Of a stretch of 43,863 nt of DNA, positions 23,162-43,310 are shown one piece after another. This DNA comes from an uncultured Desulfuromonadales bacterium. Its GTDB lineage: Bacteria > Desulfobacterota > Desulfuromonadia > Desulfuromonadales > Trichloromonadaceae. The stretch covers positions 1 to 43,863 of the forward strand of contig CALZIC010000120.1 of assembly GCA_945787285.1 (NCBI GenBank). The letters run 5' to 3'. Below the pieces are notes generated by a model. That model saw nothing but the letters and a program-made list of their open reading frames with translations, was not told the DNA's origin and did not search any database. Position 1 is the stretch's first letter. Every line of letters starts with the position of its first letter. Position numbers and translations under genes: made by a program.

Positions 23162-24395
23162 TCACTCTGACGCCATCTTCACCAGTCTCGGGTCGAACCG
23201 GGCCACCGTTTCCACCAGATCGGTCTGGGCCGCCATGACCTCATCGATATCCTTGTAGGCCATCGGCACCTCGTCCAGTCCGGCGGAGAGCAGGGTCACT
23301 CCGCGCTCATCGAGAAAAGCGCGTGCCTGCTTCCAGGTGAAATTCTGCCTGGCAGCCTTGCGGCTCATTTTTCGACCGGCACCATGGGAGGCGGAGCAGA
23401 GAGAGTCGGGGTGGCCCTTGCCGCGAACCACGTACCCTGACGTCCCCATGGAACCCGGGATGATGCCGAGAACGCCCATTCCTGCCGGGGTCGCCCCTTT
23501 TCGGTGAACCACCACCTGCTCACCGTTGTGAACCTCATTCCAGGCGAAGTTGTGATGATTCTCCACATCGAGAAGGACCTCGGCCCCGAGATGGTCGGCG
23601 ATGTCACGGTGGATCAGGGCATGATTGGCCGCTGAGTAAAGGCCCATCAGTTCCATGGCATTCCAGTACCCCTGCCCTTCTTCGCTCTGCAGATCGAGCC
23701 AGGCCAGCGGCTGAAGCTGGTTCGGGAGCTCGGGATGCAGCTCACGAGCAACACGGCTGTAGTGTTCAGCGATCGAACCGCCGGTCCCCCTGCTGCCGCT
23801 GTGGCTGAGCAGGGCCAGGTAAGTGCCGGCCTCCAGCCCCAGGTCAGACTGCAAAAGGGTCAGTTCACCAAACTCTACAAAGTGGTTGCCGCTGCCGCTG
23901 GTGCCCAGCTGCTTCCAGGCCTTGTCCTTTAGGCCGCGGGTCAGGCGGGTTATGCTCCAATCTGCATCCATGACATCGTGCTCTTTGCGGTGTGAAAAGG
24001 TGGCCCCGACACCAAAAGAGGTCGATCGGCAGCCCGTACCCCTGATGCGCATCGGGCATCAGCGCGCCGGAGACCGAAACCGGCAACCTGCAGGCGTTTT
24101 CCATCTGCTCTACCGCACTCTGTTCAAGGTCGGTCCCCCAGCGGCAATAGGGAGCAGGATCCTGCCGATGATCGAAGCGGGCCCGGAACTCCTTGACCTC
24201 CTGGTAGGTGAGCGCAAAGGAGCCGAACAGCTCATGCTCAAGATAGTCCTGCGGATTATCAACGACCGCGGACATCATCGCCCGGATCGACTGTTTATCC
24301 TGGCCCGCCCTGGCCGCCTGAGCGGTGGCCTGCTGAGCCAGTTTCATCAGGGAGCCCTTGGGGACCCCGAGATTTGTCAATTCTCTGTTTTTCAT
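23162..24395 (-). pseudogene. rtcB: RNA-splicing ligase RtcB, split into two overlapping ORFs by a frameshift at an A4/T4 run (about 24014-24020)
   Basis: ORF 23865..24395 carries the N-terminal part ending MPDAHQGYGLPI. ORF 23162..24052 carries the rest: GSGNHF, HHNFAWNE, RKGATPAGMGVLGIIPGSMGTSGYVVRGKG, SHGAGRKMSR, MAYKDIDEVMAAQTDLVE. The frames switch right after the metal-binding PDAHQGYG motif. Confidence 0.85.
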
Positions 24396-27193: not shown

Positions 27194-27264
27194 TTGTTGG
27201 TGCAGGACTCGAACCTGCGACTCCCGTGGGGTACACGGTGCTCTACCGACTGAGCTAACCAGAG
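27194..27264 (-). pseudogene. tRNA-like element / probable degenerate tRNA (intact D-arm and T-arm; 5-nt anticodon loop; acceptor stem only 4 of 7 bp)
   Basis: minus strand reads CTCTGGT-TA-GCTC-AGTCGGTA-GAGC-A-CCGTG-TACCC-CACGG-GAGTC-GCAGG-TTCGAGT-CCTGC-ACCAACA-A. Canonical GCTCAGTCGGTAGAGC D-arm and GGTTCGAGTCC T-arm. Anticodon loop has 5 nt instead of 7. No CCA. Confidence 0.5.
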
Positions 27265-27535: not shown

Positions 27536-29146
27536 ATGAAAAAATCAGTCGCCATCGGCCTGCTCGGACCGGTTCTGGATAACGGCAAAGGCGCTAAGCG
27601 CTGGGAGCGCTGGCGCCCCTCGGTCGCACTCTGTCAACACGAGGAGCTGCTCGTTGACCGTTTCGTCCTGCTCTACCAGCGGCGCTACGCCAGCCTTCTG
27701 GAACGCATTGTCGAAGACATTCGCCAGGTCTCCCCGGAAACGGAAGTCGTCCCTCAGCTCATGGAGTTCGACGACCCGTGGGATTTCGAAAACGTCTTTG
27801 GAGCCCTGCACGACTTCGCCCGTGAATATCCGTTTGATCCCGACCAGGAGGACTACCTGGTACATATCACGACAGGCACCCATGTGGCCCAGATCTGCCT
27901 GTTTCTGCTGACCGAGGCGCATTATTTCCCGGCCCGCCTGATCCAGACCAGCCCCTCGCGCAAAGCGGACCAGCTTGCCTCGGGCACCTATTCCATCATC
28001 GACCTCGACCTTTCGCGCTACGACCGCATTGCCACCCGTTTCAGCCAGGAACAGCGGGATGATATCTCGTTTCTCAAATCAGGCATTGAAACCCGCAATG
28101 CCCGATTCAACCATTTGATCGCGCAGATCGAGCAGGTGGCGATCCGGTCGGTGGACCCGATTTTGATTACCGGCCCAACAGGTGCAGGCAAGTCAAAACT
28201 GGCCCGACGGATATTCGAACTGAAAAAGGCGCGGCGCCAAATCCCAGGGAACTTCGTCGAGGTCAATTGCGCCACCCTGCGTGGCGACGCCGCCATGTCC
28301 GCCCTCTTCGGCCATCGCCGCGGGGCGTTCACCGGCGCTTTGCAGGACCGTCAGGGGCTGCTGCGTGCTGCCGACGGCGGGATTCTCTTTCTCGATGAAG
28401 TGGGGGAGTTGGGACGGGATGAGCAGACCATGCTGCTGCGCGCCGTCGAGGAGAAGCGTTTTATGCCCCTGGGCTCGGATGCTGAAACAGAGAGCGATTT
28501 CCAACTTCTATGCGGTACCAATCGGGACCTTTACCAGGATGTGGACAAGGGGCGCTTCCGTGAAGACCTGCTGGCCCGGATAAACCTCTGGACCTTCGCT
28601 CTGCCGGGGCTGGCCGATCGCCCCGAGGATATCGAACCCAATCTCGATTACGAGCTCGACCGGTTCACGAGCCGCACCGGTGCCCGCATCACCATCAACA
28701 AAGAGGCGCGCCAGCATCTGCTCCGTTTCGCCACCTCCGCCGAGGCCACCTGGCCAGCCAATTTCCGCGATCTCAACGGCGCGGTCACGCGCATGGCCAC
28801 CCTCGCCCCGACCGGCCGCATCACCACCGAAACCGTAAAGGAAGAGGTTGCGCGTCTTCACCATGCCTGGCGGTCGCGAGGTGGAAATATAAAGGAGGAA
28901 ATTCTTCTGGAAGTACTCGGGCAGGGTGGGATTGAAAAACTCGACCTGTTCGACCGGGCCCAACTGGCCGAGGTGTTGCGCGTCTGCCGCGCCTCAAAAA
29001 ACCTTTCGGAGGCGGGCCGCACCCTGTTTGCCGTGTCGCGCCAGGAGAAAAAGCAGGCCAACGACGCCGACCGACTGCGCAAGTATCTCGCCCGGTTTGA
29101 CCTGAACTGGGAAAGCGTCCGAAGCACGGGGTCCACACCTCATTAA
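27536..29146 (+). CDS. rtcR: sigma54-dependent transcriptional regulator RtcR (N-terminal CARF domain, AAA+ sigma54-interaction domain)
   Basis: 536 aa; collinear with E. coli RtcR as recalled (MKKSVAIGLLGPVLDNGKGAKRWERWRPSVALCQHEEL..., DYLVHITTGTHVAQICLFLL, ARLIQTSPSRK, GPTGAGKS Walker A, GAFTGA, FREDLLARINLWTF). Confidence 0.9.
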   Translation: MKKSVAIGLLGPVLDNGKGAKRWERWRPSVALCQHEELLVDRFVLLYQRRYASLLERIVEDIRQVSPETEVVPQLMEFDDPWDFENVFGALHDFAREYPFDPDQEDYLVHITTGTHVAQICLFLLTEAHYFPARLIQTSPSRKADQLASGTYSIIDLDLSRYDRIATRFSQEQRDDISFLKSGIETRNARFNHLIAQIEQVAIRSVDPILITGPTGAGKSKLARRIFELKKARRQIPGNFVEVNCATLRGDAAMSALFGHRRGAFTGALQDRQGLLRAADGGILFLDEVGELGRDEQTMLLRAVEEKRFMPLGSDAETESDFQLLCGTNRDLYQDVDKGRFREDLLARINLWTFALPGLADRPEDIEPNLDYELDRFTSRTGARITINKEARQHLLRFATSAEATWPANFRDLNGAVTRMATLAPTGRITTETVKEEVARLHHAWRSRGGNIKEEILLEVLGQGGIEKLDLFDRAQLAEVLRVCRASKNLSEAGRTLFAVSRQEKKQANDADRLRKYLARFDLNWESVRSTGSTPH

Positions 29147-32628: not shown

Positions 32629-33942
32629 CACTACTGTCCGGTTAAAAAAGTTTGTACGTCCGTAACCTCTTGATTCTTTTTGTTCTTTGACATAACTGTT
32701 CTTTTTTCGATTTGAATTTGAGTATGCTGGCACCTTCCCGCGACTTGAGGAGGGGACCAATGAATTCTGGCAAAACCGTTTTCAGGCAGCTACTCGAGAT
32801 TCTCCCACGACATGAATTCAACGTTTGCGTGCGTCGCTATCGCGGTGAGTATCGGGCCAAGACTTTTTCCACCTTCGATCAGTTCCTCTGTCTTGCCTAT
32901 GCACAACTGACCGGGCGTGAAAGTCTGCGTGACATTGAAACCTGCCTAAACTCCCAAAGGGAGAAGCTTTACCATGTTGGGTTTCGAGGTAGCGTGTCTC
33001 GGGCAACGCTTGCCGATGCCAATGAGCGAAGGGACTACCGCATTTTTCAGGATTTTGGACACGTCCTGATCGGCATTGCGCAACGTCTGTACCAAAACGA
33101 GCCCCTTGCTATCGAATTGAAGCAGCCCCTTTATGCCTTCGATTCCTCAACCATCGACCTTTGTCTTTCTCTGTTTCCATGGGCTGAATTCCGAAAGACG
33201 AAGGCGGCGGTTAAAATGCACACTCTGATTGACCTACGTGGCTCAATTCCGACGTTCGTGGCCATCACAACAGGCAAGGTTCATGATGTCAGAATGCTGG
33301 ACGAGGTTCCGATCCATGAGGATGCTGTTTATACAATGGATCGAGGGTACATCGATTATGCTCGGCTCTATGCAATTCATAAGCAGTCAGCATTCTTCGT
33401 GATACGGGCCAAGGCCAATCTGCGTTACCAGCGACTGTACTCGCAACCGAAGGACAAGGCCGCGGGGATCCGGGCTGATCAGGTCATAACCCTGGGGACG
33501 CAGAAATCGAAAGAAGGCTATCCCGAACGACTTCGACGGGTCAGTTATGTTGACAAAGAGCGGAACAAGCGGCTGGTTTTCCTCACCAACCACTTCGATA
33601 TTTCAGCACGCACAGTTGCCGATATCTATAAGCAGCGCTGGCAGGTGGAGCTCTTCTTCAAATGGATAAAACAGCATCTGCGGATCAAGTCGTTCTACGG
33701 TACGTCGATCAACGCCGTTAAGAGCCAGATCTGGGTTGCCCTGTGCATTTACCTGCTGGTGGCTATAACCAAGAAGACGCTTGGCATACCTTGCAAGCTC
33801 TACACTTTTCTACAGATTATTGAGGTCAATTTGTTTGAGAAAAAGCCCATTTCATCGCTGGTTGCAGAGGCACTTAAACAAACCACAGACAGCCTCGAAT
33901 GTAACCAGCCGAATTTATTCACAAGTTAACCGGACAGTAGTG
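32629..33942 (+). mobile_element. IS4-family insertion sequence (1314 bp) with perfect 17-bp terminal inverted repeats CACTACTGTCCGGTTAA
   Basis: IRL 32629-32645 and IRR 33926-33942 (reverse complement identical); single DDE transposase ORF inside; flanks share only a tttttc motif, no clean target-site duplication. Confidence 0.8.
32760..33929 (+). CDS. IS4-family DDE transposase
   Basis: YKQRWQVELFFKWIKQHLRIKSF motif typical of IS4/IS5-superfamily DDE_Tnp_1; start at MNSGKTVFRQLL with gaggagg RBS. Confidence 0.85.
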   Translation: MNSGKTVFRQLLEILPRHEFNVCVRRYRGEYRAKTFSTFDQFLCLAYAQLTGRESLRDIETCLNSQREKLYHVGFRGSVSRATLADANERRDYRIFQDFGHVLIGIAQRLYQNEPLAIELKQPLYAFDSSTIDLCLSLFPWAEFRKTKAAVKMHTLIDLRGSIPTFVAITTGKVHDVRMLDEVPIHEDAVYTMDRGYIDYARLYAIHKQSAFFVIRAKANLRYQRLYSQPKDKAAGIRADQVITLGTQKSKEGYPERLRRVSYVDKERNKRLVFLTNHFDISARTVADIYKQRWQVELFFKWIKQHLRIKSFYGTSINAVKSQIWVALCIYLLVAITKKTLGIPCKLYTFLQIIEVNLFEKKPISSLVAEALKQTTDSLECNQPNLFTS

Positions 33943-38621: not shown

Positions 38622-38735
38622 TGTTTTCTCGAAAAAACACCGGAGTTGCATTTCATTCCGCGGGTATTAGTCTTGTAGGCAGGACGCAAACCGAAAGCAC
38701 ACGTTCGAGAAGACACTTATCAGAGGGAGGCTTTT

Positions 38736-39386
38736 ATGGGATGTGTCAGGTTCAAGGTGTTTATCCTACAGATTGTTCTGCTCTTCAGCCTGCCGGCGCT
38801 CTCTTTTGCCGAGCAGCCTGCGGCAGTTCAGACAGTAGCTACATCGCCCGACGCTATCTGTCCGCTGCTGATCGGCAGCCCGGTTCCGGACCTTACCGTC
38901 AAGACGGTCGCGGGCGAGTCGTTTGACCTGAAAGCCGCCATTCGCTCGAAACCAACGGTTCTGATCTTTTATCGGGGCGGCTGGTGACCGTACTGTAATC
39001 TCCAGTTGGGAGAACTGATTAAAATCGAACCGGAACTTCTCAAAATCGGCTACCAGGTCATCGCCCTCAGTGCCGACAAGCCGGAATATCTGCAGAAAAG
39101 CCAGTTGAAGCACAAGCCGAACTACCTGCTTCTCTCGGACAGCACCATGGAGGCCGCCATGGCCTTTGGGGTCGCCTTTAAAGTGGATGCGCAAACGGTA
39201 GAGAAGTATAAGGAGTTCGGGGCCGATTTAGAGCAAGCCTCAGGAAAAACCCACCATCTGCTGCCGGTGCCTGCCGCCTTCGTGATCGGCTCGGATGGGG
39301 TCGTCAAATTTTCCTACGTCAATCCAGACTTCAAGACCAGGGTGAGTTCCGATGTGCTGCTGGCAGCGGCGAAATCTGCCTTGTAA
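38736..39386 (+). CDS. predicted selenoprotein: secreted Prx-like/redoxin-family thiol-disulfide oxidoreductase with in-frame TGA (Sec) at 38985-38987 in a W-U-PYCN active site
   Basis: ORF-track pieces 38736..38987 and 39006..39386 share one frame. The only interruption is TGA, exactly where Cys sits in the redoxin F-Y-R-G-x-W-C-P-x-C motif (FYRGGW-TGA-PYCNLQ). Signal peptide at the N-terminus. A 5-bp stem-loop TCTCC-aguug-GGAGA starts 11 nt after the UGA, which matches bacterial SECIS geometry. Confidence 0.7.
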
Positions 39387-39451
39387 CTGATCCTGTGAGT
39401 TTTGCCCGGTCAGAACTCGCGGAAGCAGGATCATGAGAGAAGGGGAGTGCC

Positions 39452-40099
39452 ATGGGGTTGAAATCCAGGCTAGAGGCCATGAAGTCCGACTTCATCCGTA
39501 ACGCCGATCCGGTCATACTTGAGAAAATGCAGCATGCAACCCGGGTTCTCGAAGAACCCGACCATCTGGCCTTTGTCCTGAATGTGGGGGAGCGAGCTCC
39601 GGAATTCAGCCTGAATGACGCCCGGGGACAGGCCGTCAGCAGCCAGGATCTGCTGCTGAAAGGACGGCTTCTGGTTGCCTTTTATCGAGGGGTGTGGTGA
39701 CCGTATTGCAACGCGGAGCTGGAGGCTCTGCAGGAAATCTGGCAGGAAATCGAGAAGACGAAAACCACCCTGGTTGCCATTTCTCCCATGCAGGATAAAT
39801 ACGCTCCCCAACTGGTTCAGAAACTTCAGCTGAGCTTTCCGGTTCTCAGTGATCCGGGCAATCGGGTGGCGGAGCAGTTCGGTGTCGTCTATACCCTGTC
39901 CAACGGAATGAAAGAGATCTACAAAGATCTCGGTATTGACCTGGAGCGCTTCAACGGCGATACCAACTTGCGGCTGCCGATGCCGGGACGCATCATTATC
40001 GATGGCGGGGGGATAATTCGCGACGTCGATATCCACCCCGATCACACCACCCGTCCCGAGCCGGAAGAGACCCTGGCCATTCTGAGATCACTGAAATAA
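39452..40099 (+). CDS. predicted selenoprotein: cytoplasmic Prx-like/redoxin paralog with in-frame TGA (Sec) at 39698-39700 in a W-U-PYCN active site
   Basis: ORF-track pieces 39452..39700 and 39788..40099 share one frame (FYRGVW-TGA-PYCNAELEALQEIWQ...), checked by hand translation of 39701-39790. Hairpin GCGGAGC-uggag-GCUCUGC starts 12 nt after the UGA. Confidence 0.7.
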
Positions 40100-40101
40100 A
40101 A

Positions 40102-40135
40102 AGCCGGATGCCCCCTGGGGGGAATCCGGCTTTGG
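40102..40135. terminator. bidirectional rho-independent terminator between the second selenoprotein gene and the GGDEF gene
   Basis: aaaaaGCCGGATgccccctggggggaATCCGGCtttgg. Confidence 0.7.
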
Positions 40136-41222: not shown

Positions 41223-42598
41223 TCAGCCCGACAGAACGATCTCCACGATCAGTCCTCCATCTGTCGCATTGCGTGCCGTGACCGACCCGCCGTGTCGCCG
41301 GGCGGCCCGCTCGACAATGGCCAGGCCGATACCGGTACCGCCGCTCTTGCGGTCGCGGGCCACGGCGGTGCGGTAGAATGGCTCGAATATTTTCTGCAGC
41401 TCTTCATCCGGCACTCCCGGCCCATGGTCGCGTACGCGTATCGTCACCAGCCCCGACGCTTCATCCCTTGCCAGATCGACCTCTACGGAAGTCCCCTCGT
41501 CGGTGTAGTTCACCGCGTTGCGAACCACGTTTTCGCCAATCCTGCGCAGCAGGTCCACCGAGCCTTTGATGAAAATGTCGTCGCTCTGGTGCAATTGGAC
41601 CGTGCGGTTGCGGCTGCGGGCCTCGAAATCGGCGTCGGAGACGATGTCGCGCACCAGGCCGGAGAGGTCGACCTCCTGCTGTGGAGCTTGACGGGTGCCG
41701 GTTTCGAGCAGGTTCAGACTGAGAAGCTGGCCGATCATCTCGTTCATGCGATCGGTTTCCCGTTCGATGCGGTCCAGGGACGCCCTGGCTTCTTCACCCG
41801 AACGTTGCCGGGCCAGTTCGAGAGCGACGTTGAGGCGGGCGAGGGGAGAGCGCAGTTCGTGGGAGATGTCCCGTTGCAGGCGTTTCTGCGAATCGATCAG
41901 GTCCTCGATGCGTTCGGCCATCCGGTCGAAATCGCGGGCCAGGTTGCCGATTTCGTTTTTTGGCTGACCCGGGTTGAAAGGTCGCCGTCGGCAAACTGGC
42001 GGGTCGCTTCGCTCAATTTGCGGATCGGCTTGGTCAAAGAGCGGGTCAGGACGAAGCAGACGATTCCCCCGACCACCAGCAAAGCGCTGAGACCGACCCC
42101 CTGGCCAGGTAAATAGTCCCGGTGTCGCGGGGGGCGACGAATTTTCCCTGTCCGTGCGGAAGATACTTTCAGCTCGATGACCAGCACCGAGTGGGGCAGG
42201 TCAGGCAGGGGCAGGGGGCGGCCGAAGTAAAAGTAGGGGTAAGCGCGGAGGGCCTTGACGCTCCGCTCGGCAAAAATCAGATCCGCCAGTCGGGTGGCAA
42301 GCTTCGGGGCCCTTTGGCCCGTGAGGGTCCTGTCCTTTTCGGTAAAGAGGAAGGGGCGTGGAGATTCCGGGTCCAGATCGTCGAGGTACTGGCTCCAGCC
42401 CTCGGTTCCACCCCTTGCAAGAGCTTCGGCCGCCTCACGGGCATAGCCGTCGAGTCCTTTGGAGGCGAACTGAAGCTGGTTTTCGAGAATCGGCCGTTCC
42501 TCCGGGCGGTTCAGGTAGCTGATCACGTGGACGGTCGCTCCGGTCAGGGTGACCGTCAGCCAGAAGCTGAGGAAGATTTTGACGAACAGGCTACGCAT
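41223..42598 (-). pseudogene. two-component sensor histidine kinase (periplasmic sensor-TM-HAMP-HisKA-HATPase; CpxA/EnvZ-like), split by a frameshift in an A6/T6 run at about 41957-41962
   Basis: ORF 41897..42706 carries TM1, the sensor, TM2 and HAMP, ending in out-of-frame junk. ORF 41223..41921 carries the HisKA H-box (SHELRSPL) and HATPase (G-box GGTGIGLAIV). Adding one A to the A6 run restores ...RVSQKNEIGNLARDFDRMAERIEDL.... Start at MRSLFVKIF (ATG 42598) overlaps the end of the regulator gene. Confidence 0.8.
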
Positions 42599-43310
42599 GG
42601 GGTTCCTCGCTGCTGTCGGCATACAGGTAGCCGACACCGCGGACTGTCTTGATCCGCTCGCTGTCGCCGATACGGTTGCCGAGTTTTTTGCGCAGGCTGC
42701 TGACATGTACGTCGATGCTGCGGTCGTAGGGGGAGAGGCGCCGTCCCAACACCTTGCGGACCAGTTCTTCCCGTTCGATCACCTTTCCCGCCGAGCGCAT
42801 CAGCACTTCGAGCAGGGTGAACTCCACCGCAGTCAGTTCGATGGCCTCCCCGTTGCGTCTGACTTCCCGGGTGCCGCCGTTGAGCTCGAGATCACCGATT
42901 AAAAGGCGTGGGACGCTCTCTGCGGTTGATTCCTCCTTTTCAACAGGAGCTTCGGCCCGGCGCTGGATGGCTCGGATACGAGCAACCAGTTCGCGTGGAT
43001 TGAAGGGCTTGGGCAGGTAATCGTCGGCGCCCATCTCCAGACCGACGATGCGGTCGATATCGTCGCCTCGGGCAGTCAGCATGATCACCGGCACTTTCGA
43101 TTTTTCACGGATGTGACGCAGCACGTCGAAGCCGCTCATCCCCGGCAGCATCACGTCGAGCACCACCAGACCGTATTCTACGGCAAGAGCCTTTTCGACC
43201 CCGGCGTGGGCTTCGTTGACCGTTTCGATCTCGAACCCCTCGGGGGTCAGGTAGTCGCAAAGGAGTTCGCAGAGTTCGGTGTCGTCGTCGATAACGAGAA
43301 TGCGGTTCAT
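42591..43310 (-). CDS. OmpR-family response regulator (CpxR-like), receiver plus winged-helix
   Basis: 239 aa; MNRILVIDDDTELCELL...VLDVMLPGMSGFDVL receiver domain; C-terminal TVRGVGY winged helix. Confidence 0.9.
   Translation of the reverse strand: MNRILVIDDDTELCELLCDYLTPEGFEIETVNEAHAGVEKALAVEYGLVVLDVMLPGMSGFDVLRHIREKSKVPVIMLTARGDDIDRIVGLEMGADDYLPKPFNPRELVARIRAIQRRAEAPVEKEESTAESVPRLLIGDLELNGGTREVRRNGEAIELTAVEFTLLEVLMRSAGKVIEREELVRKVLGRRLSPYDRSIDVHVSSLRKKLGNRIGDSERIKTVRGVGYLYADSSEEPHA

Follow-up and report, generated by a model that had tools for sequence, protein, structure and literature searches.

Two adjacent redoxin genes with in-frame TGA codons, very likely encoding Prx-like UxxC selenoproteins, on a contig of an uncultured Desulfuromonadales bacterium

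Background

The 43,863-nt contig CALZIC010000120.1 of an uncultured Desulfuromonadales bacterium (assembly GCA_945787285.1; the whole stretch is called the window here) carries, at positions 38736 to 40099, two co-oriented genes for redoxin-like proteins, gene 1 and gene 2, each of which has one in-frame TGA in its reading frame. The question raised by this locus is whether these TGA codons end translation or are read as selenocysteine (Sec), the residue written U in motifs such as UxxC. From the analyses described below we consider it very likely that both are genuine selenoprotein genes of the peroxiredoxin-like (Prx-like) thiol:disulfide oxidoreductase (UxxC) family, probably co-transcribed. 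Taken singly, gene 2 is almost certainly a selenoprotein gene, and for gene 1 the same can be said with good, if somewhat lower, confidence.

The UxxC Prx-like family was catalogued among the predicted selenoproteins in 2004 (Kryukov & Gladyshev 2004), and Geobacter and its relatives commonly have it (PMC1794560, PMC1088965, PMC13188914), so that a preliminary description of the window rightly called such proteins known from deltaproteobacteria. The 'Prx-like thiol:disulfide oxidoreductase' was reported from Geobacter sulfurreducens, G. metallireducens and G. uraniumreducens, as well as from Desulfotalea psychrophila and Syntrophus aciditrophicus, and both Sec use and these selenoproteins are documented in Desulfuromonadales (PMC1794560). 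The Global Ocean Sampling (GOS) survey listed 225 Sec and 2,740 Cys sequences as 'Prx-like 1' (pfam00578, UxxC), and also used the naming 'Prx-like 1/3' (PMC2398784). A 2026 review describes the family (PF00578, UxxC/UxxU, with Geobacter sulfurreducens WP_010940744.1 as representative) as 'predicted with high confidence' and not experimentally verified (PMC13188914).

Results

Ordinary open reading frame (ORF) calling divides the locus into four pieces of 83, 126, 82 and 103 amino acids (aa). When the TGA codons are read through, the products have 216 aa (gene 1) and 215 aa (gene 2), and a single AhpC-TSA/Redoxin domain spans each of them with the TGA inside it (gene 1: residues 46-192, E 5e-24; gene 2: residues 45-191, E 4e-25). 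The scores of 85.1 and 88.6 bits to PF00578 (AhpC-TSA) lie far above the cutoff of 26, and the UxxC motif, by which the family is defined (PMC1088965), is found in both genes as W-U-P-Y-C. The assignment to the family was made by the PF00578 domain and the UxxC motif, with orthologs from Geobacteraceae metagenome-assembled genomes (MAGs), 49-51% identical to gene 2, as a proxy for WP_010940744.1. The surroundings of the TGA are nearly identical in the two genes (TAT CGN GGN NNN TGG TGA CCG TAY TGY AAY, encoding Y-R-G-x-W-U-P-Y-C-N); the two proteins share only 26% identity and represent different subfamilies of the UxxC family. A scan of the whole window gave no convincing case elsewhere of an in-frame TGA with long open frames on either side. 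The genes, their UGA codons and the RNA hairpins that follow them as candidate selenocysteine insertion sequence (SECIS) elements are as follows.

38736..39386, + strand: gene 1, predicted exported Prx-like UxxC selenoprotein, 216 aa, Sec84 (frame, domain, homologs)
38985..38987, + strand: UGA of gene 1, putative Sec84 in W-U-P-Y-C-N (Cys alignment; same TGA in contig L122)
38999..39013, + strand: gene 1 SECIS candidate A, UCUCC-AGUUG-GGAGA (minimum-energy fold; register of the acidobacterial clade)
39003..39017, + strand: gene 1 SECIS candidate B, CAGUU-GGGAG-AACUG (register of the ortholog hairpin; mutually exclusive with A)
39452..40099, + strand: gene 2, predicted cytoplasmic Prx-like UxxC selenoprotein, 215 aa, Sec83 (frame, domain, homologs)
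39698..39700, + strand: UGA of gene 2, putative Sec83 in W-U-P-Y-C-N (Cys alignment; TGA in relatives and in L122)
39713..39731, + strand: predicted gene 2 SECIS, 8-bp stem GCGGAGCU/GGCUCUGC with apical loop GGA (energy, covariation, frozen synonymous codons)

A public contig from another assembly, L122 (GCA_945787475.1, CALZHZ010000235.1), is 98.7% identical to the window over the aligned stretch with both genes. It shows the gene order GDSL lipase, gene 1, gene 2, GGDEF, and keeps both TGA codons; because L122 was assembled independently, sequencing error is excluded as their source. The gene 1 TGA and hairpin are identical in the two contigs, and after codon 45 only one codon differs. The public annotation of L122 consists of four genes of 83, 126, 82 and 103 aa, exactly the fragmentation that the preliminary description had expected of standard annotation. 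As a separate observation, the differences between the two copies of gene 1 are clustered in codons 2-20 (window 38739-38795, L122 1109-1165), where 12 of 13 amino-acid changes are found, and the mature protein differs by two residues, which points to local divergence or recombination at the 5' end of the gene.

What stands at the TGA position in related proteins was clear for both genes. For gene 2 we found 718 database relatives, with lengths of about 224 aa and the source name 'peroxiredoxin-like family protein', the best 120 of which align over the full length (query coverage 99-100%) with 43-51% identity. Relatives of gene 1 number in the thousands, with 50-63% identity, lengths of about 215-230 aa and the motif FYRGGWCPYCN. 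In the full-length homologs (43-63% identity overall), 116 of gene 2 type and 112 of gene 1 type, the TGA aligns to the first Cys of an invariant W-C-P-Y-C. The residue at the Sec position is Cys and never Trp or Gly in these 228 aligned homologs, so that the alignment to Cys homologs suggested in the preliminary description came out in favour of its reading.

Genes with the same in-frame TGA were sought with the pattern TAYMGNGGNNNNTGGTGACCNTWYTGYAA (YRG-x-W-TGA-P-[YF]-C) in one genome per species (185,579 species), which gave TGA-form loci in at least 120 different species. Among the matches listed, the reading frame past the TGA continues for at least about 100 aa, or up to where the fetched stretch ends, in 119 of 120 loci, and the hosts belong to Acidobacteriota, Desulfobacterota (a Malonomonas rubra MAG, Desulfoluna and Geobacteraceae), Rubrobacterales, Chloroflexota, Dormibacterota and others. 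The closest Sec-form orthologs of gene 1 in this set are L055 (60.6% identity, spanning residues 37-216), L041 (47%), L027 (45%) and L105 (35%); those of gene 2 are L057 (Malonomonas rubra MAG, 49.5%) and L113 (Desulfoluna limicola, 50%), besides L003/L115 (Geobacteraceae MAG, 49-51%). At this site 52 of the closest 80 metagenomic relatives of gene 2 have TGA and 28 have TGY. With genomic and metagenomic sequences taken together, more than 170 homologs carry the same in-frame TGA, which, with the open frames, the spanning domain and the Cys alignment, bears out the two tandem UxxC redoxin genes that had been proposed.

In public protein collections we also met three entries (P0002, P0003 and P0015) with Trp at the Sec position (WWP[YF]C). 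The DNA of P0002 (locus L001, 58-741) has TGA at the position called as Trp, and the three entries are therefore taken as Sec forms called under a code in which TGA means Trp.

The preliminary description had also drawn a small SECIS-like hairpin after each UGA. Both hairpins exist, and they start 11-12 nt after the UGA; only that of gene 2 agrees in full with the published bacterial SECIS model, which allows 3-9 nt for the loop and 4-16 bp for the stem, asks for a G among the first two positions of the loop, and sets the distance between UGA and loop at 16-37 nt and the minimum folding energy at -7.5 kcal/mol or below (PMC13188914). Counting from the U of UGA, Sec forms of gene 2 type read NNN GAG CUG GAA GCU CUG, with a stem of 16-23/27-34 and a loop of G24-G25-A26. 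In the window the hairpin GCGGAGCU-GGA-GGCUCUGC starts 12 nt after the UGA, has its loop 20 nt from the UGA and forms all eight pairs, with -12.5 to -15.1 kcal/mol.

In the family of gene 2, codons downstream of the site differ between TGA forms (44, motif-matched) and Cys forms (28) as follows.

Codon 7: GAG in 44/44 TGA forms; GAG in 9 and GAA in 14 Cys forms
Codon 8: CTG in 43/44 TGA forms; CTG, TTG, CTC and CTT mixed in Cys forms
Codon 10: GCT in 44/44 TGA forms; GCT in 4/28 Cys forms (Fisher p = 2.6e-15)
Codon 5 (neighbour): AAT in 22 and AAC in 22 TGA forms; AAT in 10 and AAC in 18 Cys forms

Synonymous sites of the hairpin are thus frozen in the TGA forms only, where adjoining codons are free to vary. 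The mean local folding energy is -9.5 kcal/mol in TGA forms and -4.8 kcal/mol in Cys forms (p = 1.5e-9). Over 68 distinct Sec-form sequences, 90.8% of cells in the hairpin are paired against 36-45% in slid registers, and none of 500 shuffles matched the pairing score. Compensatory changes were found in pair 16-34 (G-C in 31 sequences, C-G in 13) and pair 17-33 (C-G in 24, U-G in 23, U-A in 10). A quick neighbour-joining tree groups all 28 Cys forms in one clade, which lies within the Sec forms; the divergence of the Sec forms is at least that of the Cys forms, yet they show no synonymous variation at the frozen sites.

Gene 1 is less simple. The sequence after its UGA contains CUC CAG UUG GGA GAA CUG, in which two hairpins can be drawn. 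Hairpin A (UCUCC-AGUUG-GGAGA) has a 5-bp stem that starts 11 nt after the UGA and a loop 16 nt from it, and is the minimum-energy fold of both the 45-nt and the 50-nt stretches downstream of the UGA; its energy of -6.2 kcal/mol (-7.4 in the 50-nt fold) is the only respect in which it falls short of the SECIS model. Hairpin B, a 5-bp remnant of the hairpin of the orthologs, has -4.6 kcal/mol. The four Sec-form orthologs of gene 1 read CAG YUG GGU CAR CUG and form a stem of 6-8 bp with the loop GGU, in which U-A/C-G and G-C/C-G swaps are seen; this hairpin arises in part simply from encoding the peptide QLGQL, CUG being the reverse complement of CAG. Three Cys homologs of gene 1 (L203, L204 and L205) show that QLGQL-type coding already gives the hairpin of the Sec forms, and such a hairpin may predispose this subfamily to interconversion of Cys and Sec, or may be what is left of a SECIS that was lost. 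The third loop base is U in 4/4 Sec forms (GGU) and G in 3/3 Cys forms (GGG), too few sequences for a firm conclusion.

A third clade of the UxxC family, with 38 loci mostly from Acidobacteriota (for example L008, L019, L050 and L065, within L002-L121), has a SECIS of its own, which occurs in two forms, ACUCCG-AGUUR-CGGAGU and ACCUCG-AGUUA-CGAGGU, and is free of mismatches at the two covarying pairs. This perfect double compensation (UCC..GGA against CUC..GAG) includes changes of Ser to Leu and Ser to Gly. Hairpin A of gene 1 has the position and the AGUUG loop of this covariation-supported element. The sequences make a SECIS element in gene 1 plausible as a candidate, the exact stem of which is ambiguous between A and B. 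Folding of the single sequences was uninformative (z-scores against shuffled sequences of +0.20 for gene 1 and -0.51 for gene 2), and the Rfam models gave no SECIS match at gathering thresholds or at E <= 10. The significance of the hairpins, as judged from these sequences, rests on comparison across genomes, and folding energy alone lends it no support.

The solved structures closest in sequence to the two proteins are ResA-type thiol-disulfide oxidoreductases and BCP/PrxQ peroxiredoxins, with about 20% identity. When aligned with ResA, the proteins have U and C opposite the two Cys of CxxC, and against Aeropyrum Bcp, FYRGGWCPYC is aligned to FFPAAFSPVC, with Sec at the Ser/Thr position and the downstream Cys at the peroxidatic position. 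The canonical peroxiredoxin motif PxxxT/SxxC is retained only in its Cys, since Pro is replaced by Arg and Thr by Sec. The preliminary description had put Sec at the resolving/peroxidatic Cys; this has to be corrected, as Sec aligns to the N-terminal Cys of the ResA CxxC and to the Ser/Thr of the peroxiredoxin T/SxxC. A peroxidatic placement was rejected, the downstream Cys and not Sec being aligned to the peroxidatic Cys. By these alignments the predicted Sec is the thioredoxin-type attacking residue, at the Thr position of peroxiredoxins.

In the AlphaFold model of a Cys homolog 51% identical to gene 2 (pLDDT 94), two N-terminal helices form an extension ahead of the Prx/Trx fold, and CxxC is at the start of helix 84-95; the gene 2 product is modelled on it as having the same extension. 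Of the solved chains, BcpB, Bcp4 and AhpE come nearest to this model, at 13-23% identity; normalised by target length, their TM-scores are 0.86-0.91. No NCBIfam model reached its cutoff for either protein; the best was Bcp with 46-61 bits against 140, and Bcp, PrxQ, AhpC and PrxU were all far under cutoff for both.

The two genes are framed by the following further elements.

38723..38730, + strand: Shine-Dalgarno-like GAGGGAGG, 5 nt from the gene 1 ATG (direct sequence reading)
38736..38810, + strand: predicted Sec-type signal peptide MGCVRFKVFILQIVLLFSLPALSFA of gene 1, with cleavage after SFA (sequence reading)
39440..39447, + strand: Shine-Dalgarno-like AAGGGGAG ahead of the gene 2 ATG, inside the 65-nt intergenic gap (sequence reading)
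40102..40135, + strand: intrinsic terminator AGCCGGAU...AUCCGGCU, then UUUGG, directly 3' of the gene 2 stop (sequence reading)

The N-terminus of gene 1 has the layout MGCVRFK / VFILQIVLLFSLPAL / SFA|EQ, with a basic n-region, a hydrophobic core and small residues at -3/-1, and a hydrophobic N-terminus is common to its orthologs and Cys homologs. The product of gene 1 is accordingly predicted to be exported via this signal peptide and that of gene 2 to remain in the cytoplasm, which is the distribution given in the preliminary description. A terminator scan found none in the 65-nt gap between the genes and matched the inner part (40115-40129) of the strong terminator 3' of gene 2. Co-transcription is likely because there is no terminator between the genes and a strong one after gene 2, which probably ends a two-gene transcript. 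Operon-like clustering is noted for some selenoprotein genes (PMC13188914).

The pair is preceded by genes for a permease of FtsX/MacB type (ybbP-like), an ABC ATPase (ybbA-like) and a GDSL lipase (tesA-like), and followed by those for a GGDEF protein and a two-component system. The 'neat unit' with tesA-ybbAP that had been noted is present in the same species (L122), but neither this synteny nor a second family member nearby was found in any of the 120 other genomic loci listed, where only generic ABC ATPase hits were seen. The tandem pairing is lineage-specific, and a functional link to tesA-ybbAP is unsupported. TGA is an ordinary stop elsewhere on the contig, and the code is standard, because it ends at least a dozen Pfam-supported genes, including BioA, which stops at TGA after 449 aa, equal to the homolog length. 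BioA is 74-76% identical to Desulfuromonas proteins, by which the organism is assigned to Desulfuromonadales.

Some other features of the contig were observed in passing. An IS4-type DDE transposase gene (DDE_Tnp_1 + DUF4372; 32712-33929, + strand) lies about 5 kb upstream of the pair and adjoins a nitroreductase gene. RtcB is apparently broken (23162-24395, - strand): the ORF 23162-24052 covers only positions 133-423 of the Pfam RtcB profile, and the N-terminal motif ALMPDAHQGYGLPI is in another frame (ORF 23865-24395), which indicates a frameshift, pseudogene or assembly error near 24110. A histidine kinase gene is likewise split into overlapping frames (41223-42706, - strand), the second probable frameshift on the contig; ORF 41897-42706 stops inside the HAMP domain (profile 1-30 of 53), and ORF 41223-41921 has HisKA and HATPase_c. 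Between rtcR (27536-29146, + strand) and the SPFH-rtcA-rtcB genes (- strand) there is a tRNA-like element (27198-27261, - strand), called tRNA-Gly(ACC) by ARAGORN and scored 39 bits by the Rfam tRNA model, with canonical-looking D and T arms. Its 'anticodon loop' has 5 nt only (UACCC), so that it probably does not function as a tRNA and may instead be a mimic of the Y-RNA/YrlA kind, linked to the RNA-repair operon.

Discussion

Several points weigh against taking both genes as selenoprotein genes. Selenium content has been shown experimentally for no member of the UxxC Prx-like family (PMC13188914). None of selA, selB, selC/tRNA-Sec and selD was found within the 43.9-kb contig. In gene 1, both hairpins (A, -6.2 kcal/mol; B, -4.6 kcal/mol) are weaker than the -7.5 kcal/mol of the model, the hairpin diverges from the GGU-loop hairpin of the orthologs, and two of the three Cys homologs encoding QLGQL/QMGQL fold alike, so that the hairpin alone does not discriminate in the clade of gene 1. 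In the gene 2 family, since the 28 Cys forms are one clade, the contrast in codon use between Sec and Cys forms is close to a single phylogenetic comparison.

The explanation that survives best beside genuine selenoprotein genes is one in which gene 2 is functional and gene 1 is a poorly decoded or decaying copy, its SECIS having drifted. The best hairpin of gene 1, with -6.2 against -12.5 kcal/mol for gene 2, misses the -7.5 kcal/mol limit, the loop GGU of the four orthologs has become GGA, and the pair G24-C28 has been lost. However, the frame is intact across 216 codons, the TGA and the hairpin are the same in L122 with one codon change after codon 45, and hairpin A shares position and AGUUG loop with the covariation-supported SECIS of a related clade. 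Moreover, some genuine bacterial SECIS elements fail the consensus model (PMC13188914). We regard decay of gene 1 as unlikely.

It is less probable still that the TGA codons are genuine stops, whether of four short genes or of two redoxin genes killed by nonsense mutations. Gene callers do give four ORFs, there are other apparently broken genes on the contig (RtcB and the histidine kinase), and the Sec machinery was not found on it. This would require, however, that nonsense mutations had struck the codon of the catalytic Cys not just in the two genes but also in over 170 homologs of many phyla, and had given TGA every time, never TAA or TAG. The downstream halves are conserved as protein (L055 is 60.6% identical to gene 1 over residues 37-216), the C-terminal pieces would be half a thioredoxin fold with no CxxC of their own, and an RNA hairpin under synonymous constraint follows the TGA.

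Slightly less probable again is that UGA is decoded as Trp, Gly or Cys, by a variant code or near-cognate read-through, instead of Sec. In favour of this explanation, termination at UGA is leaky when C comes next, and public gene calls have Trp at the homologous TGA (P0002, P0003, P0015). These calls are artefacts of gene calling under code 4, as the TGA in the DNA of P0002 indicates, the code on the contig is standard, the homologs carry Cys here and not Trp or Gly, and a selected structured element just downstream is the mark of SelB-dependent decoding. Errors for TGC or TGT in what is apparently a metagenomic contig, with two probable frameshifts elsewhere, can practically be dismissed, as both TGA codons recur in the independent assembly L122 (GCA_945787475.1) and over 170 further sequences, which come from unrelated projects, have the same TGA.

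For genes 1 and 2 as genuine selenoprotein genes, we infer decoding, export and chemistry from the gene anatomy, the Sec/Cys homology, the conserved TGA and the hairpin that were observed. By the standard bacterial mechanism, SelB with Sec-tRNA(Sec) would bind the hairpin, the apical loop of which lies about 16-20 nt past the UGA, and Sec would be inserted at codon 84 (gene 1) or codon 83 (gene 2), translation running on to the true stops. Fold and alignment place the predicted Sec at the N-terminus of the first helix, in the position of the attacking Cys of CxxC. There it would attack a substrate disulfide, or possibly a hydroperoxide, and the Cys three residues downstream would resolve the intermediate through an intramolecular selenenylsulfide. 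Re-reduction may be provided by a thioredoxin-type system in the cytoplasm or a DsbD/CcdA-type system in the periplasm.

Among known systems, no essential difference separates the two genes from the Prx-like thiol:disulfide oxidoreductase selenoproteins (PF00578, UxxC/UxxU), with which they share the domain, the replacement of TxxU by UxxC, the SECIS directly after the UGA, abundant Cys homologs and the occurrence in Geobacter, Desulfuromonadales and other Deltaproteobacteria; a tandem of distant subfamilies, one of them exported, is not mentioned in the cited papers. Sec-containing peroxiredoxins (Prx, TxxU; PrxU) are also selenoproteins of the same fold and Pfam family, but in them Sec replaces the peroxidatic Cys, whereas here it is three residues upstream and the Cys at the peroxidatic position is kept; in addition, the Pro of PxxxTxxC is Arg here (FYRGxWUPYC), and the PrxU score is 17-27 bits against a cutoff of 270. 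The ResA/TlpA/CcmG-type oxidoreductases have W-C-x-x-C at the start of helix 1, as here, and are exported, like the predicted product of gene 1. Identity to them is only about 20%, however, the NCBIfam ResA and DsbE models are far below cutoff, and both proteins here contain an additional insertion, besides which the gene 2 protein has a helical hairpin at its N-terminus. Eukaryotic SelL (UxxU) and NF040769 ('SelL-related redox protein') agree with the present proteins in the Prx-like fold and in the place of the redox motif, but the full-length match to the NF040769 hidden Markov model is weak (38-44 bits against a cutoff of 120) and the motif here is UxxC, not UxxU. At the RNA level, the E. 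coli fdhF-type SECIS and the bSECISearch model resemble the elements described here in being hairpins within the coding region with a stem 11-12 nt after the UGA and a small apical loop, G then G/U, 16-20 nt from it; there is no sequence similarity to the fdhF element, and the element of gene 1 is under the energy threshold.

A more far-reaching proposal can be made only tentatively, and we think it rather improbable as a whole: the pair would form a co-transcribed, selenium-dependent redox module, one enzyme acting on either side of the inner membrane, and gene 1 would be a case of SECIS turnover in place, with the QLGQL hairpin as a pre-adaptation easing the conversion of Cys to Sec. In the window, the ortholog hairpin of gene 1 may then have become weaker while another arose 4 nt further upstream, with the AGUUG loop and geometry of the acidobacterial clade.

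Conclusions

Genes 1 and 2 are new members of an already known family, and what is known of selenoproteins is unchanged by them; their value is in the correction of annotation and in the clade-specific SECIS consensus, and not in new biology. In the nearly identical public record each gene is cut in two and the catalytic residue is lost, and the WWP[YF]C entries mask selenoproteins as seemingly complete proteins. A family model built from the clade-specific consensus hairpins of this very widespread family could rescue many similarly split genes. With genes 1 and 2 split in that public record, the redox capacity and the selenium dependence of this Desulfuromonadales lineage are under-reported.

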